The notes: generated from the sequence alone by a model not told the origin. 64,000 nt of DNA from Alphaproteobacteria bacterium (GCA_965261735.1 OZ253470.1:672001-736000); one strand, 5' to 3'. Shown: positions 6,745 through 59,337, numbered from the stretch's first letter. Numbers and translations are program-made.

Positions 6745-6778
6745 GGGGATTATATACCGGAGTCACAATTCGGGCGCA

Positions 6779-6940
6779 TCAGTCATCCTTGATGGTTTTA
6801 ACGGCCATGAGCTGAAGTGCCACCCGCGCAAGTTCTTCGGGCGTCGTGTCGATGGTAGCGTCTTCCTCTAGCTCGGCCTTGCTCGGTTGGTAGGTCGCGG
6901 GACGCACCCACAGATCAGGTTTGGTCTTCGGTTTGGTCAT
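6779..6940 (-). CDS. 53-aa protein with YQPSKAE motif
   Basis: GGAGG RBS before ATG; related to 58368-58565. Confidence 0.7.
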
Positions 6941-6951
6941 GGTCTTCCTCC

Positions 6952-8780
6952 CTATGCCGCACGCGGCAATTGCAGCTTGGCGATCAAATATTCCATGCCC
7001 CGGTCGCCCTTCACACGGTTGCAGTGCCCACAAAGCAGTTGCAGGTTGTCGATGTGATCGGCGCCGCCCTTCTGTCGGGCAATGATGTGATCAATCTCCA
7101 GGTGCCTCATCTCAAAATGACTGTCGCAGCCTCGACAGTGCCCGCCTTGCTCGCCATAGAGCAGCTTGCGGTTGCGCAGATCGTTGTAGCGGATGATCTG
7201 GCCCAGATCGGTTCGCCGGGGGATGTCATCACGATGCGCTCCTGCAAAGAACAATCCCAACTCATCGCGCATCCTGATCTGAACCAACTCGGCCGCCTTC
7301 GGCGAGATGTCGATCCCTACCCATTCTCGTTGCAGCTCTTCCGCCGCGATGCAGGCTGTTGCACATCCGCAAAAGGGGTCCAGAACAATATCTCCCTCAT
7401 TGGAACTGGCCTCTATTACACGGCGTACTAGATTTAGGGGCTTCTGTGTCGGGTAGCCCGTTCGCTCTTTGGCTCGCGGATTGATCGGCGAAATATCTGA
7501 CCACAGATCGGCCACAGCTTGTCCCGGCATTTCGTCCAAGGATCGCTTCAACTGCGCGACCCTGCTCTTTGTATATATCCTTCCTTCCGCATCTAGCTTC
7601 CTTGCCTATCCGGTTAACGCCCATGACCGCTACATGTAGGGTGCCGCCACTCTCCCGAGTAAAGCTCGGCATAGGTTGGAGCAGAGGTGTCGCCCGCGAT
7701 GCCGAGCAATGAGCGGAAGGCGTTGAACGGGTAGAACCGCCTGTTGAAGCGGAAGGTGAACTCGTTGAGGTAGGCTTGTAGGTGCTGGTGGCTAACGCCG
7801 TGGTGGATACCGATCAGCCACGTCTTCAGGTTGGCGAAAACCAGATGGATGATCGGCAGGTATTGCTCGGCAACCTCTGGATCACCACACTCGGCAACAG
7901 CGAAGTGCTCATAGCCGCGCTTCCCGAGGCCAGCATAGCCGCTCCAATCGTCAGTAACGATCAGCGATCGCGGCGCGACGGTGCTCTCGACGAACCCACA
8001 GAGCGACTCGGCGCTACGGTCGAGCACGACGGCGAGCCGAACGCGTCCGGCATAGCGTCCGTCTTTCCGGTTGTCGAGCTTGGTGCCCGGCTTTCGATGA
8101 CGCACCTCGATGGCACAGGAGACGGGAACCTTGTGGTGAACACCACGGCCTTCCCCACGCGTTCGCCCGCCAACCCAGGTTTCGTCCACCTCAACATGGT
8201 TCTTGGGCTGTCCACCGATCCTGTCTTGGTTGGGCCGCACCATGCCCGAGCGGAGCTTGTGGAGAATTTGAAAGGCCGTCTCGTAGCGCGAAAGACCAAG
8301 TTGCCGCTGAAACTGCACGGCGGACATGCCGGGCGTCTGACTGGCGACCAGATAAGCGGCCCAGAACCAGACGTTCAGCGGAGTGTGGCTACGCTCCATC
8401 ACTGTTCCCACCGTCAGCCCGGTGTTCTGGCGGCACTTGCGGCAGCGCAGGACGCCAGGGCGGTTTTCAAAGTGGAACGGCTCTCCCGCCGTGCCGCAGT
8501 GCGGGCAGGCAAAGCCGTCTCCCCAGCGGGCTTTCTCCAGGTAGGCGGCGCAGGCCGCATCATCGGGGAAAAGTCGCTGGAACTCGGGTAGCGAATGCGG
8601 GAATGGGAGATCGGCGCGGTCGAGAACATCCATGGCGCGCTCCCCTATATCCGGGTTGCGCCCATTCTAGCCCTAGTGGGTGTGGGTGTAAACCGGATAG
8701 GTAAGCTAGCTTCTTCATTTTGTCTTCGGTAAGACGCCACGGTTTGGTGACTCCGTGGAAGTCATAGACAGGCCCACGCC
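6952..8780 (-). pseudogene. N4/N6 DNA methyltransferase fused to C-terminal HNH nuclease; IS-interrupted and 5'-truncated
   Basis: GYPTQKP, VLDPFCGCAT, GIDIS motifs; HNH CxxC...DHII...NLQLLCxxCN; frame continues across the IS into 8706-8780 (PVYDFHGVTKPWRLTEDKMKKL). Confidence 0.88.
7601..8705 (-). mobile_element. IS1595-family (ISSod11-type) element, copy 1; transposase 7614-8633
   Basis: 15-bp IRs CTTGCCTATCCGGTT; 8-bp TSD CTAGCTTC; Zn ribbon, VEVDET, VTDDW and YLNEFTFRFN motifs. Confidence 0.95.
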
Positions 8781-10214
8781 GATCGTGTCCCGCGGAGTGG
8801 TGTAAGAGCGTTGCGCTCTACGCGGCTCCCGGCGGGTAGGGCCGGGACGTTCAGGCTGCCACGGTGGGCAGCGTGATGGGGACACCATCGCTCAGCGGAG
8901 CGATGGATTCCAGCGTCATGTATCTCCTTGAGACGGCCCACTCGTCGTTCTGCTCGAGAAGGATGGCGCCGACGAGCCGTGTGATGGCGGCTTCGTTGGG
9001 AAAGATACCGACGACGTTGGTGCGACGCTTGACCTCGGCATGGAGCCGTTCGATCGGGTTTGTGGAGTGCAATTTCTGGCGGTGCTCCCTGGGGAAGCTC
9101 ATGTAGGCGAGGACGTCGTGCTCGGCTTCGTCCATGAGAACTGCCAGCTTGGGCACCTTGGGCCTGAGCTGGTCGGCGACCTGGCGCCACTGGACCTTCG
9201 CGCTGTCGGCGTCCTCCTGGGCGAAGGCGGAGACGACGCGCCGGCCCTGGCGGCCGGCATGGGCCAGCAGGTTGCGGGCGAAGTGCACGCGGCAGCGCTG
9301 CCATGTGGCGCCGAGGATCCGGGTCGCGGCGGCCTTCAGGCCCTTGTGGTCGTCGGAGATCACCAGCTTCACGCCGCGCAGCCCGCGCCGGGCCAGCGAG
9401 CGCAGGAACTCGGTCCAGAAGGTCTCGGCCTCCGACGCGCCGATCGCCACGCCCAGGACCTCGCGGCGGCCTTGGTCGTTGACGGCCACAGCCACGGTCA
9501 CCGCGACCGAGACGATGCGTCCGGTCTGGCGCACCTTCACGTAGGTGGCGTCGAGCCACAGATAGGGCCAGTCGCCCTCCAGCGGTCGATCGAGGAAGCC
9601 GGTGACCTTATCGTCGATCTCGCCGCACAGCCTGGAGACCTGGCTCTTGGAGGCGCCCGACATCCCCATCGCCTGAACCAGATCGTCGACCGAGCGGGTC
9701 GACACCCCCTGGATGTAGGCCTCCTGGATCACCGCAGCCAGCGCCTTCTCGGCCATCCGCCGCGGCTCCAGGAAGCCCGGGAAGTAGCTTCCCTTCCTCA
9801 GCTTCGGGATCTTCAGCTCGACCGTGCCGGCCCGCGTCTCCCAGGACCGGTCGCGGTAGCCGTTGCGATGGGTGATACGATCCGCCGAGCGCTCGCCGTG
9901 CCCGGCGCCGGTCAGGCCCTCAACCTCCAGTGCCATCAGCCGCTCGGCCGTGAAGCCGATCATCTCGCAAAGCAGATCGGCATCGGAGCTCTTCTCCAAA
10001 AGCGCGCGCAGGGTCATCATGTCCTGGGTCATCGTGGTTCTCCTTCGGGTCAGGTTGGTTTGCACTAGCCCAACCCTAAACCGGAACCGCGATGGCCTCC
10101 GCTGTGGATAGCCGGCTTGCCTACGCCAGACTCTCGGCGGTCGCTACGGCAAGCCGCCTACCCACAGCTACCAGAGGCTCCAACAACTCCTACACCACGT
10201 CCTGGGACACGACC
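8781..10214 (-). mobile_element. IS256-family element, copy 2; transposase ORF 8851-10032 open
   Basis: Near-identical to 850-2282 in inverted orientation; flanks CCCACGCC / CGGGCGCC do not form a TSD. Confidence 0.95.
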
Positions 10215-10548
10215 CGGGCGCCGGCCTCGGCGCGTTTCGGCTCCCTGGTATCAGTGGTGTAGTCGCGCAGAATTTCCGCGACCCGTATGTGGTACGCGGC
10301 GAAGATGTCACCCTTGCCTCGTGCCTGCGCGACTTGGTACTCGGCGGTGTCCTTCCAGGCCCGGACCGCCTCCTCGTCGCGCCAGATCGAGAGCGACACG
10401 TACTTGCTGGGCGTGGTCACGGCGCGAAGCGCTCGACCGAGACGAAACCGTCGACTCGCTCAAGCTCCGGACGAAGCGCCTCGGCAAGGTCGAAGTACGC
10501 CTGATCCCTACCTTCGCGCATCGTCACTTCGAAGACGACTATGATCAT
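10215..10548 (-). pseudogene. antibiotic biosynthesis monooxygenase (ABM) family, frameshifted
   Basis: MIIVVFEV...YFDLAEALRPELERVDGFVSVERF, shift near 10425, then KYVSLSIWRDEEAVRAW...IFAAYHIRVAE. Confidence 0.8.
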
Positions 10549-10664
10549 CGCTATGCTCCTCGGAACCCGCATTCCGTCGGTGTCCATACCAACCGGTGGT
10601 TTCGCCGCCAGCGTCGGCTACAGGTACGCGGCGCGCGCCGTAGCGCCACCGGCGGGGGATTAGC

Positions 10665-10910
10665 GTGAACATCCTGGTGGGTCTTGTTCGCCTCATCGAC
10701 TTGATCAACGACGCGGTTGGTCGCACCGTTTCGTGGCTCACCGTCTTGATGGTGCTCGTCGTCTTCGCCGTGGTTGTCCTGCGCTACGTGTTCGCGGTGG
10801 GCTGGATCGCGATGCAGGAGATCTACGTTTGGATGCACCGCACCGTGTTCATGCTGGGAGCCAGCTACACGCTGCTCCACGATGGGCACGTGCGCACCGA
10901 CCTCTTCTAA
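10665..10910 (+). pseudogene. TRAP small permease (DctQ) N-terminal fragment
   Basis: VVVLRYVF...QE...FMLGASYTLLHDGHVRTD, then premature stop. Confidence 0.85.
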
Positions 10911-11073
10911 GTGCCTGCAACTGGCGGCCGAGGATGCCGGCCTTGCCGAACGCCGAAACCGCCGTCCACTGCTTGCGGCCCTGTGAGATCGCAGGAGCCG
11001 GGAAACTGGAAGCCGCGGCCGTCGCAGCAACGCCTGCCGCGGCCGTGCGCGTAATGAATCTACGGCGTTTCAT
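10908..11073 (-). pseudogene. TRAP solute-binding protein (DctP-type) N-terminal fragment
   Basis: Tat signal MKRRRFI...FPAPAISQG.KQW; truncated at the DctQ junction. Confidence 0.75.
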
Positions 11074-11451
11074 GGGTGTCTCCCCTAGCTGGGGCGCGAG
11101 TCGGCAACGACGCGCGTTTTCGCCTCGGGCGGGGGCCGAGGTATTGCTAAAGATAGAAGGGCTTCTGGAATGTCGCGACGGAACAAACGCGCGCCCTATG
11201 CTCCCATACGGTGCGCCTCCCTCATCCGTATTGATTCCCAGTTTGTGGCGCGACCCCACCCGTTCTGGCCTCGACAACGGAGTGGGGAACGTGCACACTT
11301 TCGGCGGCATCGGCCCGTTTGGCGGCCGACCAAATGGTTGTCGCTACCGGCGAGGGTGCCGGAGGCAACGGGGGCAATTCCGTCATTGGTTTCGGAGCGG
11401 GCTGCCGCTGCGACGAGGTGGCGTACTCAGAAACGTCCGAGGGAGGTGGTC

Positions 11452-12618
11452 ATGAAAAAGTTCATTACGCTTTTGGTAGTTGGCTTGGCACTGCCTGCGG
11501 TGCTGCTCGCGAGCACCGCCGACGCGGCGGAGAAGGTCCTTCGTATCCCGTTCATGACGAACTTCACGGGTCCGAGCTCGCCCTTCAGCTTGAGGCTGTG
11601 GCGGGGCGGCGAGATGGCCATGAAAGACATCAACGCCGCGGGCGGCGTTCACGGCGGCTACAAGCTCGAGTTCTACAAGGTCGACACCCGGTCCGAGACC
11701 CAGACGGCCCTGACCGAGTATCGCCGCGCCTGTCGCGACCCGTCGATTCCGATGTTTTGGGCGAACGTGGGGTCCAAGGACGTCAACGCGCTCTACGCGG
11801 TCTCGAAGGACTGCAACATGGCGACGTTCGCCACGTCGTCGGGCGCGCATTGGGTCCACCCGGATCAAGGTAAGTGGATGTTCCGCTACCTGCCGGTGCC
11901 CGCGCTCGTGCAGCCTGTGCTTTTCAAAAAGCTGAAGGAGAAGTTCAACGTCAAGAGGGTCGCGATGGGGGTCGAGATCGACAACGATTTCGCCGTTTTC
12001 AACGCCAAGTCTGCACGCAAGTTCCTTGAAGAGCTGGACATGGAGATCGTCGTCAACGTCGATTCGAAGATGCATGAGACGAACTTCTCGGCTCAGGTGG
12101 CGGCGATACGCGGCGCGCGCGCCGACCTCATCATCCTCAGCCACAACTCCGACGCCGGCGGCCGGTTCGCGCGGCAGATTCGCGAGCGCGGCATCGATAC
12201 CCAGATCTCGGATACCGGGTACACCATCGGCAGCCGCGACTTCTGGAACAATTCGAAGGGGATGGGCATCGGCGCGATCACCTCGTCCATCTACAACCCC
12301 ACTGATCCACGCCCTATCGTCCAGGAGTGGGTCAAGCGTTGGCGCGCGGAGACTGGCAAGGATCAGGATCCCGATCCCTACGAGACGTCGACCTACGACG
12401 CGGTCAAGGTGTTGGCCAAGATCCTCGACAACGCCAAGTCGCTCGACCGCAAAGACATCGCGGACGCGTTCTTGACCATCAAGAACGTGGCGACCATCAG
12501 CGGCACGGTCTCGTTCCGGCCCCAGGACCTCCCCGACATCTACCGGTCCGAGCCGATCCTGGTGCAGATCGGTGAGAACGGCAGCTTGGTTCCGTGGCCC
12601 AAGATGGCCACCAACTAG
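11452..12618 (+). CDS. ABC transporter substrate-binding protein, LivJ-like (PBP type 1)
   Basis: GGAGG RBS, signal peptide, FTGP, DINAAGGV.G, YDAV motifs. Confidence 0.88.
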   Translation: MKKFITLLVVGLALPAVLLASTADAAEKVLRIPFMTNFTGPSSPFSLRLWRGGEMAMKDINAAGGVHGGYKLEFYKVDTRSETQTALTEYRRACRDPSIPMFWANVGSKDVNALYAVSKDCNMATFATSSGAHWVHPDQGKWMFRYLPVPALVQPVLFKKLKEKFNVKRVAMGVEIDNDFAVFNAKSARKFLEELDMEIVVNVDSKMHETNFSAQVAAIRGARADLIILSHNSDAGGRFARQIRERGIDTQISDTGYTIGSRDFWNNSKGMGIGAITSSIYNPTDPRPIVQEWVKRWRAETGKDQDPDPYETSTYDAVKVLAKILDNAKSLDRKDIADAFLTIKNVATISGTVSFRPQDLPDIYRSEPILVQIGENGSLVPWPKMATN

Positions 12619-12662
12619 CGGGTCGGGGAAACTAGCCCGACCAAGCCGAACGCGTTTCGACT

Positions 12663-12694: not shown

Positions 12695-12739
12695 AGGGAC
12701 TGGTGGTCCGTGCCGGGACAAGTTCGTTGGAGGACACCA

Positions 12740-17986: not shown

Positions 17987-18517
17987 CTAGTGGGTCAGGG
18001 TATCGACCATACGAACGGCATGCCGCTCGTGGGCCTTGAAGATCTGGAGCGCCTGTTGGAAGAGCGCCTTCACTTCCTGGTTCTCGATGTTGGGGATGAA
18101 GGTGAACTCGACCAGGGCATTAACGGCCTTGTGGTAGCCGAGTTCGTTCTCGGCGTAGCGGCGATCGAAGGCATCGCCACTCAGCTGCTTCATTTCGTCG
18201 ACCAGCTGCTCCGACTGCTCGATGAGCTGCTGGCTCAGGAAGTTATCCTGCGCCGTGGCGCCGAGCTTCTTGAGCAGGGCCAAAGCCATCTCATTCACGG
18301 CTTCGTGGTCCCGGACCATGGTCTTGGCGAACGCACGCACGGCCGGATTGTTGGTGATACCCAGCGCCAGGTGGGCATAGCGGATATCGATCAAATCCGC
18401 CGTGTAGGCGGCGTGAGCGATTTGTAGGTCGTTGAGGTCGGCCGCCTTCTCTGCGTGAGCGTTGGCCGAGAAAGTCACGAGCAGCGCCAGAGACGCCATC
18501 ATTACATGTTTGAGCAT
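17987..18517 (-). CDS. DUF4142-like secreted protein
   Basis: Signal peptide; VRAFAKTMVRDH, FDRRY...YH, HERHA. Confidence 0.8.
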   Translation of the reverse strand: MLKHVMMASLALLVTFSANAHAEKAADLNDLQIAHAAYTADLIDIRYAHLALGITNNPAVRAFAKTMVRDHEAVNEMALALLKKLGATAQDNFLSQQLIEQSEQLVDEMKQLSGDAFDRRYAENELGYHKAVNALVEFTFIPNIENQEVKALFQQALQIFKAHERHAVRMVDTLTH

Positions 18518-18522
18518 GGTTC

Positions 18523-19627
18523 CTTGCCTATCCGGTTAACGCCCATGACCGCTACATGTAGGGTGCCGCCACTCTCCCGAGTAAAGCTCGGCATAGGTTG
18601 GAGCAGAGGTGTCGCCCGCGATGCCGAGCAATGAGCGGAAGGCGTTGAACGGGTAGAACCGCCTGTTGAAGCGGAAGGTGAACTCGTTGAGGTAGGCTTG
18701 TAGGTGCTGGTGGCTAACGCCGTGGTGGATACCGATCAGCCACGTCTTCAGGTTGGCGAAAACCAGATGGATGATCGGCAGGTATTGCTCGGCAACCTCT
18801 GGATCACCACACTCGGCAACAGCGAAGTGCTCATAGCCGCGCTTACCGAGGCCAGCATAGCCGCTCCAATCGTCAGTAACGATCAGCGATCGCGGCGCGA
18901 CGGTGCTCTCGACGAACCCACAGAGCGACTCGGCGCTACGGTCGAGCACGACGGCGAGCCGAACGCGTCCGGCATAGCGTCCGTCTTTCCGGTTGTCGAG
19001 CTTGGTGCCCGGCTTTCGATGACGCACCTCGATGGCACAGGAGACGGGAACCTTGTGGTGAACACCACGGCCTTCCCCACGCGTTCGCCCGCCAACCCAG
19101 GTTTCGTCCACCTCAACATGGTTCTTGGGCTGTCCACCGATCCTGTCTTGGTTGGGCCGCACCATGCCCGAGCGGAGCTTGTGGAGAATTTGAAAGGCCG
19201 TCTCGTAGCGCGAAAGACCAAGTTGCCGCTGAAACTGCACGGCGGACATGCCGGGCGTCTGACTGGCGACCAGATAAGCGGCCCAGAACCAGACGTTCAG
19301 CGGAGTGTGGCTACGCTCCATCACTGTTCCCACCGTCAGCCCGGTGTTCTGGCGGCACTTGCGGCAGCGCAGGACGCCAGGGCGGTTTTCAAAGTGGAAC
19401 GGCTCTCCCGCCGTGCCGCAGTGCGGGCAGGCAAAGCCGTCTCCCCAGCGGGCTTTCTCCAGGTAGGCGGCGCAGGCCGCATCATCGGGGAAAAGTCGCT
19501 GGAACTCGGGTAGCGAATGCGGGAATGGGAGATCGGCGCGGTCGAGAACATCCATGGCGCGCTCCCCTATATCCGGGTTGCGCCCATTCTAGCCCTAGTG
19601 GGTGTGGGTGTCAACCGGATAGGCAAG
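18523..19627 (-). mobile_element. IS1595-family element, copy 2; transposase 18536-19555
   Basis: Perfect IRs; flanks CATGGTTC / AATCTTTC differ (no TSD). Confidence 0.95.
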
Positions 19628-20859
19628 AATCTTTCTGGGTTCTTACTTGACAAAATAGGCCTGAATGCAAAACGAATACTTCGAAGCAAAACTAAGGGAA
19701 CGACACAGAGCCTAAGCTTCAGAAACCTCGCACGCTTGGTCATAGTTCAAGAGGGAGAAATTCAACAGACAGGCTCCCCGTTCTGGGGCGGACAGTATAC
19801 ATTAAAGACGGCCGAAATGGCTGCTATCAAGCTCCTCCTTACTGGTGTAGATGATTCCGCCATAGTGTCGACCGACCACGTCGGTCAGGACAGAACCACA
19901 CAGATCGCATTAATCGATGAGTTGCTTGAAGATATTCGGACAGAGTTGTCTGACGTCGGCGAGGAGAGGGAAGACCTTGAGGAGCAACTCCATCAACTCA
20001 ACTCATCGATCGAAGAACGACGGGAAAGCCTAGAGGCGGCCCAGCGGGAGCTTGACGCTGTCCTAACGCAACGGCGCGAACTGGTAAAACACCGCACATC
20101 CACCCAAAATCGCATCGATGAGATCTCCGACCACCTCATACGTTTCGACCTATTGCTGAAGCACTATAGTGTGGATGAGGAGCGGCTACGCGCGATTCTC
20201 GAAAGTGGATCGACATTTGCCCACGTGGAGGCCGTCCCCTGCCCCTTATGCGGTGCACCACCAGACGCACAGCGGCACGAGGAGGCCTGCGACGGGGACG
20301 TCGGTGCTATCGTTCAGGCCGCTAAGGCGGAGATTGAAAAGATTGAAAGGCTAAGGCAGGAACTGCAAACAACAGTTGAGGAGCTTCGACACGAGTCCAC
20401 AGCGCTCGAAGATACTCTTTCAGACGAGAATGAACATATTGAACGCGTAAGTGCAGAAATTCAGGAAACCGTCGCTCCGAACGTCACGGAAGAGCGCTTT
20501 TCTTTTTCAAAGATGGTTGAGCTACGGGCGAGTGTTCAGACGGCGCTTGGTATTTTTGCTCGGGAGGAAAGCTTGGAGGCACGAAAAAGGGGTTTGGAAC
20601 AGGAAGACCAGGACGATGAGCCACAAGGATCAATCGCAACTGGCCTTCCAGACTCTGTTGCACTTCAGTTTTCCCTGAAAGTGTCAAGTTTGTTGAGGGA
20701 GTGGGATTTTCCGGGCGACTGCATTGTGCACTTTGACAAGGAAACGACAGATTTCGTGATTGACGGAAAGCCTCGTGCCAGTCGTGGCAAAGGACTTCGA
20801 GCGATTACCCACGCGGCAGTCACAATATCCCTCCTAGAATACTGCCAGGAACACGACCT
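19628..20859 (+). pseudogene. internal fragment of coiled-coil ABC/SMC-like ATPase (ABC-three-component / Lamassu LmuB-like)
   Basis: SLSFRNL, coiled coils, CPLC zinc hook, DFVIDGKPRASRGKGLRAI; lacks Walker A and B; visibly lower GC. Confidence 0.7.
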
Positions 20860-21115
20860 GGACGCCAGGGCGGTTTTCAAAGTGGAACGGCTCTCCCGCC
20901 GTGCCGCAGTGCGGGCAGGCAAAGCCGTCTCCCCAGCGGGCTTTCTCCAGGTAGGCGGCGCAGGCCGTATCATCGGGGAAAAGTCGCTGGAACTCGGGTA
21001 GCGAATGCGGGAATGGGAGATCGGCGCGGTCGAGAACATCCATGGTGCGCTCCCCTATATCCGGGTTGCGCCCATTCTAGCCCTAGTAGGTGTGGGTGTA
21101 AACCGGATAGGCAAG
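20860..21115 (-). mobile_element. IS1595-family left-end fragment
   Basis: Left IR plus about 61 transposase codons; same orientation as copy 2. Confidence 0.92.
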
Positions 21116-21914
21116 GTTCGAGGTTCGGCTTCATGCGAGCGGCGGGTACCGTCCAGGTGGCTGCGTCCATATCGATTTCGCTCCAAGCGGTACCCCGCGC
21201 CTCGCCGCTCCGCACGGCCGTTAGGATCAGAAACTCAAGACACCACTTGGCCGCCAGGGACGCTTGCGATCGTCGTATCGCCTCGACCAGCCCGCCGACT
21301 TCCCGATAGGGCAACGCCCGCAGGTGGTTCTTGACCTTCGGCATCGTCGGCAGCGCGCCGTCAATGGCTTCGCCCGCCGCGTTGTGTTCGACGAAGCGAT
21401 GAGCCTGTGCCCACTTGAGGATGGTGCGGATACGTTGGCGAACCCGGCGCGCAGTCTCCGGCGTGGTCCCCCAGATCGGCGTCAGGACGCGAAGCACGTC
21501 CTTCTGGTCGATGGTATCCACCGGCATATTGCCGAGGACCGGGTATGCGTGGCGTTCGAGAGACTGACGCCAGGTCACCGTGTGCTTGCCGTTGCGCCAG
21601 CGTGGGCGGTTCGCTTCGAAGACCTGTTCGGCCGCCCCGCGAAAGGTCGGCACGTTGACCCGGCGCTTCTCGGCGAGTGGATCGCCGCCCGACGCGATCA
21701 GCGCACGGTTGCGCGCCGCCGCCTCGCGCGCCTGGGCGAGCCCCACATCGGGGAAGCGCCCGAGGCCGATATCGCGCCGCCGCCGCCCGTACTTGATGCG
21801 CTGTATCCAGGAGCGCGCGTCACCACGTCCGATCTTCAGATAGAGCCCGACGCCGTCGCCATACATGCCCGGCGCCTTGAGCGTCCGCAACCGCGTCGCC
21901 GTCAGCTTTCCCAT
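21116..21914 (-). pseudogene. P4-type tyrosine integrase, C-terminally truncated
   Basis: Arm-binding N-terminus (YGDGVGLYL, IGLGRFP), LTAVRSGEARG, WTVPAARMK; HxxR and Tyr region replaced by IS. Confidence 0.9.
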
Positions 21915-33356: not shown

Positions 33357-33365
33357 AGGTCATTC

Positions 33366-34472
33366 CTTGCCTATCCGGTTAACGCCCATGACCGCTACAT
33401 GTAGGGTGCCACCACTCTCCCGAGTAAAGCTCGGCATAGGTTGGAGCAGAGGTGTCGCCCGCGATGCCGAGCAATGAGCGGAAGGCGTTGAACGGGTAGA
33501 ACCGCCTGTTGAAGCGGAAGGTGAACTCGTTGAGGTAGGCTTGTAGGTGCTGGTGGCTAACGCCGTGGTGGATACCGATCAGCCACGTCTTCAGGTTGGC
33601 GAAAACCAGATGGATGATCGGCAGGTATTGCTCGGCAACCTCTGGATCACCACACTCGGCAACAGCGAAGTGCTCATAGCCGCGCTTACCGAGGCCAGCA
33701 TAGCCGCTCCAATCGTCAGTAACGATCAGCGATCGCGGCGCGACGGTGCTCTCGACGAACCCACAGAGCGACTCGGCGCTACGGTCGAGCACGACGGCGA
33801 GCCGAACGCGTCCGGCATAGCGTCCGTCTTTCCGGTTGTCGAGCTTGGTGCCCGGCTTTCGATGACGCACCTCGATGGCACAGGAGACGGGAACCTTGTG
33901 GTGAACACCACGGCCTTCCCCACGCGTTCGCCCGCCAACCCAGGTTTCGTCCACCTCAACATGGTTCTTGGGCTGTCCACCGATCCTGTCTTGGTTGGGC
34001 CGCACCATGCCCGAGCGGAGCTTGTGGAGAATTTGAAAGGCCGTCTCGTAGCGCGAAAGACCAAGTTGCCGCTGAAACTGCACGGCGGACATGCCGGGCG
34101 TCTGACTGGCGACCAGATAAGCGGCCCAGAACCAGACGTTCAGCGGAGTGTGGCTACGCTCCATCACTGTTCCCACCGTCAGCCCGGTGTTCTGGCGGCA
34201 CTTGCGGTAGCGCAGGACGCCAGGGCGGTTTTCAAAGTGGAACGGCTCTCCCGCCGTGCCGCAGTGCGGGCAGGCAAAGCCGTCTCCCCAGCGGGCTTTC
34301 TCCAGGTAGGTGGCGCAGGCCGCATCATCGGGGAAAAGTCGCTGGAACTCGGGTAGCGAATGCGGGAATGGGAGATCGGCGCGGTCGAGAACATCCATGG
34401 CGCGCTCCCCTATATCCGGGTTGCGCCCATTCTAGCCCTAGTGGGTGTGGGTGTGTAAACCGGATAGGCAAG
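33366..34472 (-). mobile_element. IS1595-family element, copy 3; transposase 33379-34398 with Zn-ribbon Cys-to-Tyr change
   Basis: IRs; 8-bp TSD GGTCATTC (33358-33365, 34473-34480). Confidence 0.95.
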
Positions 34473-44370: not shown

Positions 44371-47300
44371 CTAGGCCTGGGCCAGGGCCGTCGAGGGCGG
44401 CGACAGGCTCGCCTCGTCGCGGACGGGGAGACGGCAGGTCACGCGCGTGCCTCGGCCCGGCTCGGACTCGAGATCGACGCTGCCGCCGTGCAATTCGATG
44501 AAGCTCTTGACGAGCGACAGCCCGAGCCCCGGGCTCGGGTTGCGACCACCGCCGCGCCCGCCCTTGTGGAACCTGTCGAACACCCGAGACTGCTCGCCTG
44601 CGGCGATGCCGACGCCGGTGTCGGCGACCCACAGGGGCGACCTCGGCGCCGTCGCGACGGGCGCCGAGTGCCACGGTGCCGCCGGCGGGCGTGAACCGCA
44701 AAGCATTGCTGACGAGGTTGAATAGGACCTGCTTGATCCGGCGCTCGTCGGCATCGAGGCGGCCGATGTCGCGCGGGCAGTCGAACTCCAGCGTCACCTT
44801 GCGCCGCAGGGAGCGCTCACGAGCGAGCCCGAGCACGCTCGTCAGCATCGGCTGAATCTCGAAGGGGTGGGTCTCGAGCACCATGCGTCCGGCCTTGATC
44901 ATCGCCAGATCGAGGATGTCGTTGATCAACGTCAGTAGGTGTTACGAAGATTCGAGGACGCCCGTGTTGTACTCCCGCTGCCGGTCGGTCAAGGGGCCGA
45001 AATACGCGTCGCGCAGGATCTCGCTGAAGCCGATGATGGTGTTGAGCGGTGTCCTGAGCTGGTGCGAGACGTTGGCGATGAACTCCGACTTGAGCTTGTC
45101 GGCGGCCTCCAGCGCCTCGGTCCGGTCGCGCAGCGCACGCTCGACGTGAGTGCTGTCGGTTACGTCGAGGTAGGTGAACAGCATGCCGCCGTCGGGCAGC
45201 GGCGCGCTGGCATAGTCGAGCACGAGGCCGTCCGGCCGCTCGACGCGCGCGAAGCGGGGCTCGCGTTCAAGCGTGTGGGCGATGATGCGCGCTCGACGCG
45301 CCTGCCAATCTTCGTCCACGTCGAGCAGCGCACGCCCCCTATCGACCACGTCCGACACGTGCGGTCGGGTGTCGAGATAGCTCGGGTCGAGCTGCCAGAT
45401 CTGCGCAAAGACCGGATTGAACAGCTTGAGCCGCCCGTCGCTGCCGAACACCGCGATACCCTGCGAGAGGTGATCGATGGTCGCGCGCTGGACGGCGACC
45501 AGGGTGTTGCGCGCTCGTTCGAGCTCGAGCCGGTCGCTCACGTCCTCGTAGAAGAACAGCAAACCACCGTAAGCGTGCGGTGTCGTGACGGCACGCAGCG
45601 TGGTGCCGTCCGGGAGATGCAGCAGCTCCTCGCGCGAGTCGATCAGCGTCGTGTAGAGGTCGAAGATCGATTCTTGCCTATCCGGTTTACACCCACACCC
45701 ACTAGGGCTAGAATGGGCGCAACCCGGATATAGGGGAGCGCGCCATGGATGTTCTCGACCGCGCCGATCTCCCATTCCCGCATTCGCTACCCGAGTTCCA
45801 GCGACTTTTCCCCGATGATGCGGCCTGCGCCGCCTACCTGGAGAAAGCCCGCTGGGGAGACGGCTTTGCCTGCCCGCACTGCGGCACGGCGGGAGAGCCG
45901 TTCCACTTTGAAAACCGCCCTGGCGTCCTGCGCTGCCGCAAGTGCCGCCAGAACACCGGGCTGACGGTGGGAACAGTGATGGAGCGTAGCCACACTCCGC
46001 TGAACGTCTGGTTCTGGGCCGCTTATCTGGTCGCCAGTCAGACGCCCGGCATGTCCGCCGTGCAGTTTCAGCGGCAACTTGGTCTTTCGCGCTACGAGAC
46101 GGCCTTTCAAATTCTCCACAAGCTCCGCTCGGGCATGGTGCGGCCCAACCAAGACAGGATCGGTGGACAGCCCAAGAACCATGTTGAGGTGGACGAAACC
46201 TGGGTTGGCGGGCGAACGCGTGGGGAAGGCCGTGGTGTTCACCACAAGGTTCCCGTCTCCTGTACCATCGAGGTGCGTCATCGAAAGCCGGGCACCAAGC
46301 TCGACAACCGGAAAGACGGACGCTATGCCGGACGCGTTCGGCTCGCCGTCGTGCTCGACCGTAGCGCCGAGTCGCTCTGTGGGTTCGTCGAGAGCACCGT
46401 CGCGCCGCGATCGCTGATCGTTACTGACGATTGGAGCGGCTATGCTGGCCTCGGTAAGCGCGGCTATGAGCACTTCGCTGTTGCCGAGTGTGGTGATCCA
46501 GAGGTTGCCGAGCAATACCTGCCGATCATCCATCTGGTTTTCGCCAACCTGAAGACGTGGCTGATCGGTATCCACCACGGCGTTAGCCACCAGCACCTAC
46601 AAGCCTACCTCAACGAGTTCACCTTCCGCTTCAACAGGCGGTTCTACCCGTTCAACGCCTTCCGCTCATTGCTCGGCATCGCGGGCGACACCTCTGCTCC
46701 AACCTATGCCGAGCTTTACTCGGGAGAGTGGCGGCACCCTACATGTAGCGGTCATGGGCGTTAACCGGATAGGCAAGGATCGATTTCTTGTAGGCCGGGA
46801 AGTCGGCTTGCTCGGGTAGCCGGCGCAGCTCCCGCATCTTCTCGAGAATATCGCCATGGTGGGGCGTGCCGCGGAGCCAGTGCTCGTCGAGCTGCCAGAG
46901 CCGCGCGTAGGCCCGGTTGTAGAACTGGAGCCGCTTGTCGGGGCCGGTGATCGCTACCGCGGTCGTCAGCGTCTCGAGAAGCGCCGCGTTGGCGTCGGTG
47001 TGGCGCATGAGTTCGGCACGCAGCGCATCGAGATCGCTGATATCGCGGGCAAAACCGATGAAGGCGGCGCCGTCCGCGACGGGGGCCTCCGTGATCTCGT
47101 AGGTGCGCAGCTCGCCGCCAACGACCACGCGCCGGGCCTCGCTCTGCGCCACGCCGCTATCGCGCGCCCGCCGCGCCAAGCGCCCCGCGGTGTCCGGCCC
47201 GGCGGTCGCCGACAGCTCGATGCCGGCGCCGGCCACGGCGGTCGCGGGGTCGGTGTCGACGAGGCGGGCGTAGGCCTGGTTGCACCAGGAGAGGGCGAGG

Positions 47301-52862: not shown

Positions 52863-54260
52863 TCAGGCACCGCGGGAGGCGACCACAAGAGGGCGGATGT
52901 GGCGCCGCGAGATGACGCTGAAGCGCCACGCCAGCGCCGCCGCCGCCATGGCCAGGCCGGCGCTCAAGCCGGCGAGCAAGCCCGCCACCCCGCCCTCGAG
53001 CCAGAAGGCGAATAGGGTGGCCAGTGGCACCATCAGGAAAAGGTTGGTCGTGATCACGATCCAGGCCGGCACCCACACGTCGCCGGCACCCCGCAGCGCC
53101 CCGAGGAGGACCTGCTGGGCGCCGGAAACCGCGAGCGCCAGTGCGGCCAGGGCGAGCAGCGCGGCGGTCACCTCCTGGACCGCGCTATCGAAGGTGTAGA
53201 CGGCCGAAATCGTTTTGGGCACGGCCATCATCGGGACGGCAAATCCGGCCATCAGCACGACGAGAAGCGCGAACCCGGTCCAGCCGGCGATCGCGGTACC
53301 GTGGCGGTCACCGCCGCCGACGGCGACGCCCACGCGCACCGTCGTCGCGGCCGCCAACCCCGCCGAGCAAAGGATCCCGAGGGTGATGACGTTATTGAGA
53401 ACGTTGAAGGCCGCGAGCGCCAGGGTCCCGAGATAGCCCGCCAGCACCACGAGCGTCTGCGAGGCCAGGGTTTCCAGCCCCTGGGCGAAACCGACCGGAT
53501 AGCCGAGCCGGCGCAGCGTGCGCCCCTCGGACCAGGCGCCGCGCAGGCTGCCGCGCACGCCGTAGCGGCGGTGTTCGGTGCGCAGCACGATGACGGCGAT
53601 AAGCGCGCCGGCGGCGAGCCAGCGCACCGTCGACGTAGCCAGCACCGCACCCATGGCGCCGAGCGCCGGGGCGCCGAGGTTGCCGTAGATGAGCACCCAG
53701 TTGAGCCCGGCGTTGATGAGGTTGGCGACGAGCATGATCACCATGGCCGCGGCCGGCCGGCTCACGCCCTCGAGGAAGAAGCCCGAGGCCGCGAACAGTA
53801 GAACGCCCGGCATGCCCCAGGCATACATGAGCAGGACCTGCCCGCCGCCGGCGGCGATGGCCGGGTCCTGGCCGATGGCGAACAACAACGGCCCGCCGGG
53901 CACGCACAAGAGCCCGCCGAGGATACCAAGGCCTGCGGCATGGACGAGGGCTACGCGCCAGGTTCGCCCACAGCGCGAGACGTCACCGGCGCCGTAGGCT
54001 TGGGCGGTCAGGATTGCGGTGCCTCGCAGCATGCCGAGGCCAACCAGCATCAATACGGTCTGTACCGCCGAACCGATGCCGAGGTAGGCGAGTTCCGCGG
54101 CACCGGCATGGCCCGTCATCACCATGTCGATGACGATGAGGAACAAGACGCCGGCCCGCGTAACGATAACCGGTGCCGCCAGCCGGGTGATGGCGCCCGT
54201 ATGAAATCGCAACGACTGCACGCTCGATGCCCCGGCCCGCGGCGGCTGCGCTTGTGGCAT
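52863..54260 (-). CDS. MATE family efflux transporter
   Basis: LAAPV..., LNWVLIYGNLGAPALGAMGA, GALRGAGD; about 12 TM. Confidence 0.88.
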   Translation of the reverse strand: MPQAQPPRAGASSVQSLRFHTGAITRLAAPVIVTRAGVLFLIVIDMVMTGHAGAAELAYLGIGSAVQTVLMLVGLGMLRGTAILTAQAYGAGDVSRCGRTWRVALVHAAGLGILGGLLCVPGGPLLFAIGQDPAIAAGGGQVLLMYAWGMPGVLLFAASGFFLEGVSRPAAAMVIMLVANLINAGLNWVLIYGNLGAPALGAMGAVLATSTVRWLAAGALIAVIVLRTEHRRYGVRGSLRGAWSEGRTLRRLGYPVGFAQGLETLASQTLVVLAGYLGTLALAAFNVLNNVITLGILCSAGLAAATTVRVGVAVGGGDRHGTAIAGWTGFALLVVLMAGFAVPMMAVPKTISAVYTFDSAVQEVTAALLALAALALAVSGAQQVLLGALRGAGDVWVPAWIVITTNLFLMVPLATLFAFWLEGGVAGLLAGLSAGLAMAAAALAWRFSVISRRHIRPLVVASRGA

Positions 54261-54536
54261 GGGCGCCACTCTACACCGCGCGCCGATCGGGGTGACAGAA
54301 CGGCACCGCCGGGGGCATGGCGCGACCACGGCCGCCGCGCAGCTCGCGCGCGGCCGGGGAATAGCGGTTGCACCGCTTTTACGCGCACCGTATCTTGGCG
54401 ATGGAGGGACGATCGTCGGAACCTGCCGTAAAACCGCCCGTTAAGACGGACGGCAGAACCGTCGCCGGGACGAGGTGAGGCGCGCCGGCCGGAGGGTCAT
54501 TCGGACCCTTCCTGGAGTGCCAAACTGGAGGTTTGC

Positions 54537-56144
54537 GTGGAACAGGTTGGACGCTTTCGCAGCAGCCATGGCCTGGAGCGCCTCGGCCTGCACAACGTAT
54601 CCCGCGTTCATTGGAACTACTCGGTCGCCGAGCTCTATGAGGAGGCGATCCGGCGCTACGAGGGGATGCTCACCGTCGGCGGCCCGCTGGTCGTCAACAC
54701 CGGCGATCACACCGGGCGCTCGGTCAACGACAAGTTCATCGTGCGCGAGGCGTCGAGCGAAGCCGACATCTGGTGGGGCGATGTCAACCGGCCGATCTCG
54801 CAGGAAGCGTTCGCCGGCCTCAGGCTGCGCCTGCTCGCCTACCTCCAGGGCCGAGAGCTGTTTGCCCTCGACTCGTGGGCCGGATCGGATCCCAAGCTTC
54901 GCCTGCCGGTGCGCGTCGTCACCGAGACCGCGTGGCACTCGCTGTTCGCGCGCAACATGTTCATACGCCCTTCGACCGAGGAGCTCGCCGATTTCACGCC
55001 CGAGTTCACCATCATTCACGCGCCCAATTTCCACGCGGTGCCCGAGGTCGACTCGACCAACTCGCACGTCTTCATCGTCGTCAACTTCGACGCCCGATTG
55101 GTGCTGATCGGCGGCACCTCCTATGCCGGCGAGATCAAGAAGTCGGTGTTCACGGTGCTGAACTACCTGCTGCCGCCGCGTGACGTGCTGCCCATGCACG
55201 CCTCGGTCAACGTCGGCCGCGACGGCCACGCGGCCCTGTTCTTCGGCCTGTCGGGAACCGGCAAGACGACGCTGTCGGCCGACCCCGAGCGCACTCTGAT
55301 CGGCGACGACGAGCATGGCTGGGGCGAGCACGGCGTGTTCAATTTCGAGGGCGGCTGCTACGCCAAGGTCATCAACCTGAGTGCCGAGGCGGAGCCCGAA
55401 ATCCACGCCACCACGCAGATGTACGGCACCGTGCTCGAGAACGTCGTCGTCGATTCCGATCTGCGCGTGCTCGATCTCGACGACGCGAGCCTGACCGAGA
55501 ATACGCGCGCCTCCTACCCGCTCTCGTTCATTCCCAATGTTGCCGAGTCGGGCATCGCCGGGCACCCCAAGGACATCGTCATGCTGACCGCGGACGCGTT
55601 CGGCGTGCTGCCGCCGATAGCGCAGCTGACGCCCGAGCAGGCGATGTATCATTTCCTTTCCGGCTATACCGCCAAGGTGGCGGGTACCGAGAAGGGCCTC
55701 GGCAACGAGCCGTCGGCGACGTTCTCGACCTGCTTCGGCGCACCCTTCATGCCGCGCCATCCCAGCGTGTACGCCAAGATGCTGGGCGAGCGGATCTCCC
55801 GGCACGGCTCCAATTGCTGGCTCGTCAACACGGGCTGGACGAGCGGCGCCTACGGCGTCGGCCACCGCATGCCGATCGCCTATACGCGCGCCCTGCTGAA
55901 AGCGGCGCTCGACGGGGTTCTCGCCGAGACGCCGACGCGCCGCGACGAGAATTTCGGCTTCACGGTGCCGGAGCACTGCCCGCAGGTGCCCGACGCCCTG
56001 ATGCGACCGCGCGAGACCTGGTCGGACAGCGCCGCCTACGACGAAACGGCGAAGAAGCTGGTCGGCCGTTTCCAGGAGAACTTCGCCCAGTTCGAGGCGT
56101 ACGTCGACGCCGACGTCAAAGCCGCGGCGCCGCGCGCCGCCTGA
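54537..56144 (+). CDS. pckA: PEP carboxykinase (ATP)
   Basis: [28 protein letters not shown]. Confidence 0.97.
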
Positions 56145-56274
56145 GCGCGGGCCCAGGCGGCGCGCGCAGGACCACTCGCGCTGCGGTTAGCGCGCTTTCT
56201 CATGATTTTGCTATTTGCTATATTGAGCGGGCGGACTGTGTTCTGGCCGCTTTTTCAGGAGGTAGACTCGAGCC

Positions 56275-56602
56275 ATGGCGATCATGTCGATTGTCGCCGT
56301 CCTAATGAGTTTCGCGCTCGTCGCCGCTGGGGTCGGTCTCGCCACCACTGATTTCGGGGTGTTCTTCAGCGGCGTGAGCTTTCTCATCGTGTTCGGGCTG
56401 ACCCTGACCGCCGCCTTCGTAGGCTACCAACCGCGCTACGTCGTCGAGGCGCTCAAGGCGATCGCCGGCCCCTTCCGCAAGGCCAACGTCGACCGCTCGG
56501 TGTTGACCGAGGAGACCGGCAGGATCATCCGCTGGGGCTATCTCGTGAAGAAGCACGGCATTCTCGCGCTCGAGCGCGAGATCAAGGGGGCCAAGAACCA
56601 GG
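56275..56602 (+). pseudogene. motA: MotA/PomA-like stator protein, truncated by IS
   Basis: Two N-terminal TMs, SFLIVFG, KKHGILALE. Confidence 0.75.
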
Positions 56603-57647
56603 CTTGCCTATCCGGTTGACACCCACACCCACTAGGGCTAGAATGGGCGCAACCCGGATATAGGGGAGCGCGCCATGGATGTTCTCGACCGCGCCGATCT
56701 CCCATTCCCGCATTCGCTACCCGAGTTCCAGCGACTTTTCCCCGATGATGCGGCCTGCGCCGCCTACCTGGAGAAAGCCCGCTGGGGAGACGGCTTTGCC
56801 TGCCCGCACTGCGGCACAGCGGGAGAGCCGTTCCACTTTGAAAACCGCCCTGGCGTCCTGCGCTGCCGCAAGTGCCGCCAGAACACCGGGCTGACGGTGG
56901 GAACAGTGATGGAGCGTAGCCACACTCCGCTGAACGTCTGGTTCTGGGCCGCTTATCTGGTCGCCAGTCAGACGCCCGGCATGTCCGCCGTGCAGTTTCA
57001 GCGGCAACTTGGTCTTTCGCGCTACGAGACGGCCTTTCAAATTCTCCACAAGCTCCGCTCGGGCATGGTGCGGCCCAACCAAGACAGGATCGGTGGACAG
57101 CCCAAGAACCATGTTGAGGTGGACGAAACCTGGGTTGGCGGGCGAACGCGTGGGGAAGGCCGTGGTGTTCATCACAAGGTTCCCGTCTCCTGTGCCATCG
57201 AGGTGCGTCATCGAAAGCCGGACACCAAGCTCGACAACCGGAAAGACGGACGCTATGCCGGACGCGTTCGGCTCGCCGTCGTGCTCGACCGTAGCGCCGA
57301 GTCGCTCTGTGGGTTCGTCGAGAGCACCGTCGCGCCGCGATCGCTGATCGTTACTGACGATTGGAGCGGCTATGCTGGCCTCGGTAAGCGCGGCTATGAG
57401 CACTTCGCTGTTGCCGAGTGTGGTGATCCAGAGGTTGCCGAGCAATACCTGCCGATCATCCATCTGGTTTTCGCCAACCTGAAGACGTGGCTGATCGGTA
57501 TCCACCACGGCGTTAGCCACCAGCACCTACAAGCCTACCTCAACGAGTTCACCTTCCGCTTCAACAGGCGGTTCTACCCGTTCAACGCCTTCCGCTCATT
57601 GCTCGGCATCGCGGGCGACACCTCTGCTCCAACCTATGCCGAGCTTT
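56603..57647 (+). mobile_element. IS1595-family element, copy 5, right end deleted
   Basis: Left IR and transposase from 56675; identity ends after PTYAEL. Confidence 0.93.
56616..56644 (+). promoter_or_regulatory. sigma70-type transposase promoter
   Basis: TTGACA-N17-TAGAAT, 30 nt before ATG; same allele at 19586-19614 (-); TTTACA in other copies. Confidence 0.75.
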
Positions 57648-57649
57648 GG

Positions 57650-57997
57650 TCAACCCCCCTGCTTTTCAAGCAGCTCCCGAATCGCCTTCAACTCAGCAAG
57701 AATCCTGTCCTCCATCGTCGGCTCCGGCTGTCCCAGTTTTCGCTGAATCTCAGCCGCAACCTTCAGAAATTCCCGAGCGTCGGCCACAAAAGCGTAGCGG
57801 TCCCTCCACTCCCCAGGACCTAGATCGTTTGCGTCAATCCCGTCAAGGATCAGAACCCACCGGTCGGCTTGATTTTGGCTCTTTGCATCCAGTCGAGAAA
57901 ATTTGCGAGATTTCAGAAGATGAATATTGGGAAATCGCCGACGCGCTTGCTCGAATGTAAGTGGCGTTGCCTCGCTAGATTGTTCATCATCACTCAT
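57650..57997 (-). CDS. hypothetical protein (115 aa)
   Basis: AAGGAG RBS; C-terminal amphipathic helix. Confidence 0.65.
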   Translation of the reverse strand: MSDDEQSSEATPLTFEQARRRFPNIHLLKSRKFSRLDAKSQNQADRWVLILDGIDANDLGPGEWRDRYAFVADAREFLKVAAEIQRKLGQPEPTMEDRILAELKAIRELLEKQGG

Positions 57998-58098
57998 GAG
58001 AACTCTCCTTCTCGTGGGTTGGCCCGCCCGCTGGCACGGGCGGGGCTAATAGGGTCGCCGGCTGGTGCCGGGCCGACATCGGCACAGGGAAGGGAATC

Positions 58099-58371
58099 GT
58101 GAAAAAGGGATTGGGATTTGTTTGCGTGGCCCTCTCCCTGGTCACGGGTGTATGGCTGTGGCTGGGCTATCTCGATGCCCTGTCGGATTGGTTCGGCTCC
58201 GTGCTCGGAACGATAATCGCGGTGGTGGTCATCCCAGGAATACCGTTCTTCCCATTTGTCTATTGGTACGTCGAGGGACGGTTCCCCGATTTGTATTTCC
58301 TGCTGATGGCGATCTCCGCAGGTGCTGGCATGCTGGCGGGATGGACTTTCTCAAAGGAGACGCGATCATGA
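58099..58371 (+). CDS. small membrane protein (about 3 TM)
   Basis: Hydrophobic ORF; ATGA overlap with next gene. Confidence 0.65.
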   Translation: MKKGLGFVCVALSLVTGVWLWLGYLDALSDWFGSVLGTIIAVVVIPGIPFFPFVYWYVEGRFPDLYFLLMAISAGAGMLAGWTFSKETRS

Positions 58372-58565
58372 CCAAAGACCCCAAGCCCCTCGCCAAACGG
58401 CCTATCCTGGAGGAACGCGAGATCGCACTCCCGCCGCGCGGCTACCAGCCGACCAAGGCCGAGAGCGAGCAGGAATATGATATGCCAGGAGGCGATATAG
58501 TGACCGTTCGCAATGCCTTCTTTCGGCGCGTGAGAGTGAAAAAGGAAAAGGCCAAGGCCGATTAG
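58368..58565 (+). CDS. 65-aa protein with YQPTKAE motif
   Basis: AAGGAG RBS; related to 6779-6940. Confidence 0.7.
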   Translation: MTKDPKPLAKRPILEEREIALPPRGYQPTKAESEQEYDMPGGDIVTVRNAFFRRVRVKKEKAKAD

Positions 58566-58604
58566 CGGGGGTAGTAGAACAACGTAAGAATAGGAGCCCG
58601 AGAA

Positions 58605-59175
58605 ATGTCTGAATGGTCCGTCGCAACGATTGCCGGGGGCATTGCGGCTTCGCTTATCGCCAGCATCGCGGCACTTACCGCCATCGGCGTGGCAATCTTC
58701 AAGGCCGGCCGATGGACGGGGGCTGTCAACACAACCCTTGAATCCTTCAAGGGAACAATAACCAAAGTCCAGGAGGACATAAAGGATGCGGTGCGTGAAA
58801 TCAAGGAAGCAGTGACCAAGACTCAGGCGGACATCAACAGCTTGCAGCTTGAGCTCACGTCCAAAACGCTAAGCCCTGGCAGCCCACTCGAGCCAAACGA
58901 ATTGGGCAAAAAAAGTTTCTGAGACCATAGGCGTCCCTTCAATAGTGAAGGGCCTTGCCGCTGGTTTGAGTGAAAAGGCTGAGGGCAAGCATCCATACGA
59001 TATTCAGGAACTATGCTTCAATTTTGTCCGCGATGATTACGATCCAAGCGATGAAGTTGAGAAGAATATCAAGGAATTCGCCTATGAAAATGGTATTAGC
59101 CGCGCCGATGTTATGGATGTTCTGGCGGTTGAATTGCGTGACGAGATACTTCGGTTGATCAAACAGAAAGCCTAG
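58605..59175 (+). pseudogene. membrane-anchored coiled-coil protein, frameshifted at an A7 run
   Basis: A7 to A6 at 58908-58914 joins ...NELGKK to VSETIG...YDIQ...VELRDEIL. Confidence 0.65.
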
Positions 59176-59337
59176 CCCCCGCACACGCACTGGAATGTGA
59201 CTATCCGACATAATTCCCCTTATTTTGTATGTTCGGGCTTGCATCGGCAGGGGGTACCCAGGGCATGTGCAGCCACCCAATAAACTCGGGGCAGTCATTG
59301 GTGCGCTGGCCAGGGCGGCCTCGCTCTATGCGTGCAA

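Follow-up and report, generated by a model that had tools for sequence, protein, structure and literature searches.

Remnants of IS1595-type cargo elements carry a conserved microprotein that may regulate their transposase

Introduction

Passages of PMC3129680 use the term transporter ISs for insertion sequences (ISs) of the IS1595 family that carry passenger genes. Here we describe the remains of two elements of this kind, element 1 (E1) and element 2 (E2), in a 64,000-nt stretch of an Alphaproteobacteria bacterium genome (GCA_965261735.1, OZ253470.1:672001-736000; called the window, with positions counted from its first letter). Each has near its end a small gene for a protein with the motif YQP[ST]KAE, referred to below as the microprotein. 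As in the transporter ISs, E1 and its relatives encode a transposase with a DDE_Tnp_IS1595 domain and a zinc ribbon, and the elements have terminal inverted repeats and 8-bp target duplications and carry their passenger genes in the interval from the transposase to the distal end. Such elements blur the boundary between IS and transposon, and carry methylases, nucleases and other cargo between phyla. We found no description of a conserved small gene common to IS1595 transporter ISs in the literature searched, a search outside which the second-ORF (open reading frame) entries of ISfinder lay, and the sequence comparisons below suggest a new accessory-protein family within a known IS group. We take ISNwi1 to be the name of the relevant IS1595 group and ggnnatTAT to be its end consensus, which the repeats described here, beginning GGnnATTAT, would fit.

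Several small transposon-encoded proteins regulate transposition, including Inh of Tn5, InsA of IS1 and OrfA of IS911. These are N-terminal or truncated versions made in the transposase frame, and some have a DNA-binding helix-turn-helix. The microprotein is likewise a small element-made protein, and we propose that it may act on the transposase or on end binding. It differs from them in having a gene of its own, located at the element's opposite end, in lacking any recognised domain or resemblance to the transposase, and in being absent from many related elements. An inhibitor of the transposase-derived type was therefore rejected, on the grounds of the separate gene and of the lack of a Pfam or NCBIfam domain.

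A second comparison is with Ocr and ArdA, small acidic DNA mimics that occupy the DNA-binding surface of their target, a host restriction enzyme. The microprotein is also short, has an acidic core (ELEED...TPEEL) and, in the predicted complex, occupies a region that probably binds DNA; unlike Ocr and ArdA, to which it has no sequence or structural relation, its proposed target is the element's own transposase. DNA mimicry by the microprotein is an idea rather than a result. If the proposed role is correct, a conserved, co-inherited protein of 50-65 aa that is predicted to bind the transposase would offer a new handle on element control.

Results and discussion

Two ISNwi1-type ends with related small genes

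The original prediction named two 23-nt strings with a common pattern, at 6745-6767 and, as the reverse complement, at 59196-59218, and both are present at these coordinates with the pattern intact. Written as GGGRATTAT-N7-AGTCACA, the pattern has these two matches in the window and none in any of 100 shuffles; across the 5.03-Mb genome it has three, the third being the other end of E1. Both ends match the string GGnnATTAT that we take as the consensus of the group. The transposase-distal terminal inverted repeat of E1 occupies 6745-6770 (plus strand, outer base 6745). Its 26 nt are identical between genome positions 678745 and 3645123, and it is homologous to the right ends of the intact elements L004-L010 from our locus collection. 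The transposase-distal repeat of E2 lies at 59194-59218 (minus strand, outer base 59218), is present in a single copy in the genome, and is close to the ends of L024 and L044. Both 23-nt ends are confirmed as true termini of ISNwi1-type IS1595 cargo elements.

The microprotein gene of E1 (P0001, 53 aa, family A1) lies at 6779-6940 on the minus strand, with its stop 8 nt from the repeat, and that of E2 (P0002, 65 aa, family A2) at 58368-58565 on the plus strand, where its ATG overlaps the stop of an upstream ORF. Both ATGs are preceded by a purine-rich Shine-Dalgarno stretch, read directly from the sequence. The two small genes with ribosome-binding sites were thus correctly predicted; their transcription toward the element end is the usual orientation in the family and not a universal one (E3 and L014 depart from it).

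P0001 has 62 homologous cluster representatives (48-86% identity) and P0002 has 76 others. Whether the two proteins align beyond chance had been posed as a check on their relationship. Pairwise BLASTP aligned 14 residues, 8 of them identical (E 2e-4), and comparison of the A1 and A2 profiles with hhalign covered 39 columns, at E 3.6e-6 and a probability of 87.5%. When the 96,926 six-frame ORFs of the same genome were searched, the top match of each profile beyond its own family was the other ORF (E 0.21 and 0.6), and sequences that score with both profiles or are intermediate, such as those at L031 and L047, connect the two. The two proteins are thus related beyond chance, and A1 and A2 are conserved families that are distantly related to each other. 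A joint profile (A3, 147 sequences) was run against 1.84 billion cluster representatives at 50% identity; 942 of them matched at E<=1e-3 and 143 at the stricter E<=1e-10, and the 150 matches listed were 42-140 aa long. Against A3, with the motif included, P0001 and P0002 of this genome score E 1.3e-21 and E 1.9e-24; because both are within the profile, the independent support for their membership is the 62 and 76 homologues and the A1-A2 comparison.

The microproteins form one broad, unnamed family, left without a name by gene callers and family databases in spite of its 942 cluster representatives. P0001 and P0002 matched no family in Pfam or NCBIfam at E<=1 (PADLOC and PHROGs lay outside this search), and within the same scope no curated model of a type II antitoxin or other known small-protein family fitted them. 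A sample of 40 family members included 37 without a Pfam match at E<=0.1 and three with matches unrelated to the motif. None of ten A3 clusters checked was named, a search of the ESM Atlas led only to unnamed 'hypothetical protein' clusters, and the motif strings did not occur in the literature searched.

Could the small ORFs not be genes at all, their conservation reflecting subterminal transposase-binding DNA and the likeness of ends and ORFs being due to chance? They are very short and lie beside terminal repeats, and the pairwise alignment covers only 14 residues, as such an account would have it. It is already contradicted by the 942 profile matches, by the shuffles and by the ratio of nonsynonymous to synonymous substitution rates (dN/dS), which was 0.10-0.43 in 33 of 36 pairs (three were saturated) and, for P0001, 0.10-0.29 against seven of eight homologues (the eighth pair was saturated). 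The amino-acid motif is also conserved between loci of high-GC Alphaproteobacteria and low-GC Flavobacteriaceae, and the gene sequence is kept at differing distances from the end and in both directions. We regard this account as very improbable indeed; the microprotein is encoded by a real protein-coding gene under purifying selection.

The YQP-KAE motif occurs twice in the single proteins P0141, P0145, P0202, P0229 and P0256, and L047 has tandem microprotein genes at 8076-8237 and 8246-8404, one intermediate between the families and one A2-like. A tblastn search of a plasmid collection with P0001 and P0002 gave no match. A metagenome scan at the Joint Genome Institute (JGI) with A2 gave only three distant loci, at 32% identity, where tblastn found no transposase, and a search of the host order (8 genomes) added one A2 match, at a contig end.

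The microprotein gene is inherited with the transposase while the cargo is exchanged

In the genome of the window, the YQP[ST]KAE motif occurs in exactly four of the 96,926 six-frame ORFs, all of them at ISNwi1-type ends (E1, E2, E3 and E4). A scan of 185,579 species genomes (one per species) found 28 loci, in metagenome-assembled genomes (MAGs) from at least six phyla-level groups and often in several copies per genome. At 14 of the 28 loci a transposase of the same clade lies within 5 kb upstream on the same strand (at L028 this transposase is part of a separate complete element), and at 20 of the 28 an end of ISNwi1 type, identified by eye, lies at most 90 nt past the microprotein stop. Nine elements with perfect 8/8 duplications (E3, L006, L009, L011, L015, L025, L044, L045 and L014) enclose both the transposase and the microprotein, and their cargo varies among methylase-type proteins of 506, 414 and 475 aa, an 861-aa protein and small ORFs. 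These delimited elements bear out the prediction of a transposon family with a conserved uncharacterised microprotein and swappable cargo.

The linkage was also seen in five further genomes (26.6 Mb), in which 14 of 19 microprotein matches lay within 5 kb of a clade transposase (13 upstream on the same strand and one convergent), compared with a chance expectation of about 1.6% calculated from the density of the 42 transposase matches there. The enrichment near IS1595 transposases and 8-bp-duplicated ends that the original prediction called for is therefore present. Conversely, a microprotein lies within 5 kb of only 14 of these 42 transposases. The clade as a whole numbers more than 8,000 transposases. 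Identities of transposase and microprotein correlate (r 0.66 over 11 pairs, a value reached by 1 of 5000 permutations). Altogether, the linkage of microprotein and transposon is well supported, and these data show that the microprotein is inherited together with the clade transposase while the cargo is exchanged.

The microprotein is usually the last gene before the repeat. In E2, L011 and L044 it is succeeded by additional genes, and in E3 it and the transposase gene are in convergent orientation. In L014 (4975-7238, a 2264-bp element with a perfect 8-bp duplication) it comes directly after the transposase, whose stop overlaps its start, with the cargo afterwards.

These arrangements bear on another explanation, namely that the microprotein is simply a frequent passenger gene, with an anti-defence or host-directed function or as a regulator of co-carried restriction-modification genes, and plays no role in transposition. 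The cargo often includes DNA methylases, some of them fused to HNH, and some anti-restriction proteins are small and acidic, as the microprotein is. A passenger would also account for its varying position and direction, and for the two thirds of clade transposases that have no microprotein, in elements that transpose nevertheless. It is harder to reconcile with the retention of the microprotein while the adjoining cargo is fully replaced (methylase-HNH, membrane proteins, the 861-aa protein and others), with its translational coupling to the transposase in L014, or with the structural predictions below, in which the complex model prefers the transposase as partner over three controls. These points weaken the passenger reading; with library searches limited to Pfam and NCBIfam, we consider a passenger without a role in transposition possible, though on the doubtful side. 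A related proposal, that the microprotein marks cargo-carrying elements as opposed to plain ISs, is ruled out by ten microprotein-less relatives of 2226-3606 bp with perfect duplications.

Three observations on other elements of the clade are recorded here. The L014 element is inserted in what appears to be an IS6-type transposase gene. L004, on a 2859-bp contig of a Dehalococcoidia MAG, encodes a microprotein identical in sequence to that of a multi-copy element of an alphaproteobacterial MAG (L005-L009), and both elements are 2769 bp long, which reflects either recent transfer or a binning error. Finally, microprotein-less clade elements have a second kind of small ORF that has only a '...TPE.LA.A.F...' helix in common with the microprotein profile (E 0.006 to 18). 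It is found at genome 1128568-1128783 (minus), 3676697-3676894 (minus) and 4323211-4323450 (plus), in the L064 element at 930-1133 (minus) and in the L073 element at 2728-2904 (plus), and at four of these sites it faces the transposase gene in convergent orientation and overlaps the 3' end of that gene.

Predicted complex of microprotein and transposase

The monomer model of the microprotein has an extended N-terminal part followed by two short helices (predicted local distance difference test score, pLDDT, 78.9; predicted template modelling score, pTM, 0.29). For the complex, the L006 transposase and its microprotein, each supplied as an alignment, were modelled in three runs with three controls. 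The runs scored 0.78, 0.00 and 0.80 (median 0.78) and the best control 0.00. In calibration on 80 solved complexes and 110 mismatched pairs, 58 and 2, respectively, reached the score mark; these counts are only a rough guide here because our own alignments were used. The runs agree in at least 12% of contacts, with a partner pLDDT of at least 35. The predicted interface involves microprotein residues 6-45 and transposase residues 32-45, 76-83 and 92-139, and the AlphaFold2 model of the transposase (pLDDT 78.2) has three helices (89-101, 108-115 and 119-131) in the stretch that separates the zinc ribbon from the DDE fold. Searched against the PDB by sequence, A3 had a best match at E 0.07, to viral glycoproteins, which we take as chance, and the transposase profile had none; memory of a known complex is an unlikely source of the score because neither protein has a solved relative by sequence.

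From these models we propose that the microprotein docks on the three-helix region in the N-terminal part of its own transposase, making contact through the extended N-terminal stretch that includes the YQP motif, through the acidic helix and through the TPEELA helix. The three-helix region probably reads the terminal repeats, and the microprotein would thereby modulate transposition, most likely by stoichiometric inhibition through blocked end binding; action as an assembly cofactor is a possible alternative mode.

A different target may also be considered: instead of the transposase, the microprotein might have DNA or a host factor as its partner at the end of the transposon, for instance in the choice of AT-rich targets or in end protection. 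Its basic N-terminus, the short distance from its stop codon to the terminal repeat at the 20 loci mentioned above, and the AT-rich duplicated target 8-mers within GC-rich genomes would all suit such a role. Yet no DNA-binding family or fold was detected in Pfam, in NCBIfam, in the monomer model or by sequence in the PDB, relatives without a microprotein make the same kind of AT-rich 8-bp duplications, and the proximity to the end is lost in E2, L011, L014 and L044. We think this alternative unlikely.

Several points weigh against a transposase-binding regulator. One of the three runs scored 0.00, with a partner pLDDT of 35, and the score expresses the confidence of the model and is not a measurement; the monomer model has only two short helices and a pTM of 0.29. 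DNA binding by the contacted region of the transposase is a prediction from its position and its helices. The correlation of identities is also expected from physical linkage by itself, and the varying position and direction of the gene would equally fit an ordinary passenger. Finally, 28 of the 42 clade transposases have no microprotein within 5 kb, and the ten cargo elements without one have perfect duplications and other cargo; for these two reasons the microprotein is dispensable for transposition within the clade.

Judging from the models and the linkage, a transposase-binding regulator is the most likely function, and the microprotein is probably an undescribed accessory or regulatory protein of IS1595-type cargo elements. 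For the explanation as a whole, that the window holds two dead distal ends of ISNwi1-type IS1595 cargo transposons whose microprotein binds the transposase and modulates transposition, we would put the chances at about even. A wider proposition is more tentative, and we rather doubt it: that the YQP[ST]KAE microproteins are a widespread and hitherto undescribed class of transposon-encoded regulators which clamp the end-recognition domain of IS1595-type transposases and set the mobility of cargo ISs, that the diverged TPE-LA small ORFs of 'microprotein-less' relatives do the same job, and that a partner protein is general in the clade.

Element 1 was a complete cargo IS in an ftsH paralog

The end of E1 had been predicted to mark the exact break in ftsH, and it does. 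The 5' part of an ftsH paralog (5954-6744, plus strand; Pfam FtsH_ext and the start of AAA; 5954 is the start in the ORF list) is cut by E1 at 6744/6745, its reading frame stopping at position 6744 with ...GEARVPFFS. The remainder (INGSEFVEMFVGVG...) adjoins the identical 26-nt end at genome 3645123 in reverse-complement orientation and continues from genome 3645122 downwards. Another ftsH paralog of this genome is intact and has the sequence ...VPFFTISGSDFVEMF..., compared with ...VPFFS in the window and FAINGSEFVEMF at the distant end for the broken gene. The 8-mers flanking E1, its target site duplication, are identical at 7 of 8 positions (relatives have 8/8), and the ftsH frame is restored once one copy is deleted. 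The junction is not an assembly artefact, because short-read DNA contigs from other runs span it with zero differences.

The broken ftsH looks like a diverged extra copy, because the best matches of its 5' part among relatives are only 68-77% identical. In its 3' part (L001, the locus of the distant end, 4442-5122; genome 3644442-3645122, minus), most of the protease domain seems absent, and by eye the AAA module passes directly into C-terminal helices.

Next to the microprotein gene lies the C-terminal part of a cargo gene (6952-7598, minus strand) for an N6/N4 DNA methyltransferase fused to an HNH nuclease (Pfam N6_N4_Mtase 1.7e-23, HNH 9.7e-14). It matches residues 230-414 of the cargo protein of L010, which is intact, at 81% identity. 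The methylase gene is interrupted by a 1.1-kb IS1595-family copy unrelated to E1 (c1, 7599-8705, minus strand; 8-bp duplication 7591-7598 / 8706-8713) and by IS256-type copies. A short leftover piece of the gene (8706-8780, minus strand), which borders an IS256-type copy at 8781-10214, was assigned by continuity across the c1 duplication; BLAST of this piece against L010 gave no match. Behind the distant end at genome 3645123 are an IS1595-type transposase, an inserted IS of another kind and the N-terminal half of an N6/N4 DNA methylase. This cognate transposase gene (L001 5286-6221, outside the window; PF12762 (DDE) 4.6e-39 and PF12760 (zinc ribbon) 2e-6) is 71% identical to that of the intact L010 element and is damaged: comparison with its relatives shows a 1-nt gap near codon 8, and an IS insertion has replaced its final residues.

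The intact 2492-bp element L010, from another genome, runs from repeat through transposase, methylase-HNH and microprotein to repeat. The E1 pieces in the window, together with those at genome 3645123-3648260, line up with it in this order, at 79-82% DNA identity across the aligned segments, and we conclude from this collinearity that E1 used to be an entire cargo IS within ftsH and was broken afterwards. E1 entered the ftsH paralog with this same gene order, three other ISs then inserted, and a split followed whose halves are now 2.97 Mb apart. The methylase break points at window 8781 and L001 8258 (genome 3648258) both abut position 1 of same-oriented IS256-type copies, and the copy at L001 8258 has lost 188 nt internally. 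A model with just one insertion and then one inversion, between IS256 copies, was rejected as the cause of the split, because both break points abut the same end of copies in the same orientation.

A scan of 6700-7700 for promoters and terminators found none. Contigs of the metatranscriptome run X1 (16% of sampled words) cover 7225-7438 and the adjoining IS and none covers 6779-6940; the run is uninformative on microprotein expression in either direction, because it is stored as contigs and may hold DNA.

IS load of the window and the genome

Besides c1, the 1.1-kb IS1595-family IS is present in the window as c2 (18516-19636), c3 (33364-34454), c4 (45664-46784) and the truncated c5 (56591-57647), with fragments at 2409-2530 and 20860-21132. 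It encodes a 339-aa transposase and has different terminal repeats and 8-bp duplications (clear in c1, c3 and c4), and one copy adjoins each of the two loci. The prediction that no cognate transposase survives in the window is accurate, because the five IS1595-family transposase genes found there belong to this different IS, whose ends are not of the E1 and E2 type and whose transposase is about 29% identical to the cognate type; that of E1 survives, damaged, elsewhere in the genome as described above. Two IS256-type copies are also in the window. The whole genome has about 200 tblastn matches to IS1595-family transposases and 78 IS256-type pieces, 47 of full length. This genome has undergone a massive IS expansion, and gives an example of how IS1595-type elements become broken and scattered.

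Element 2 is a one-ended remnant

The E2 remnant ends where the truncated c5 stops, and the transposase gene beside it belongs to that truncated IS of a different type. A second copy of the E2 end is absent across the genome and no cognate transposase was found for E2, which is thus a one-ended remnant with only its distal part kept. We assign it to the same kind of element because of its end sequence and because A2-type microproteins lie inside the intact L044 and L045. Its left part (57648-58367), which begins at the end of c5, has a 115-aa ORF (57650-57997, minus) and a 90-aa hydrophobic ORF (58099-58371, plus), with no family and no homologue among the fetched loci. Two more cargo ORFs, of 105 aa (with a hydrophobic N-terminus, then helical) and 76 aa, lie at 58605-59175 on the plus strand; they have no significant family in Pfam or NCBIfam (DUF948 at 4.4e-4 was below the cut-off) and no homologue in the fetched loci. 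The predicted difference in cargo, methyltransferase-HNH in E1 and membrane and coiled-coil genes in E2, is thus upheld by Pfam for E1, and the E2 cargo is without a significant family.

A 50-nt stretch of E2 (57995-58043, a start region and a GC-rich hairpin) is 98% identical to genome 4335073-4335122, which falls inside a 949-bp transposase-less element (4334258-4335206) with inverted repeats of the same general type. Outside the E2 end, in the region 59338-60572 (minus), an ORF at 59766-60572 has an AbrB/MazE-type antitoxin domain (PF04014, 4.6e-12), and the ORF downstream of it resembles, by eye, a PIN-type toxin. The E2 end lies about 120 nt from this pair, which is probably VapBC-like.

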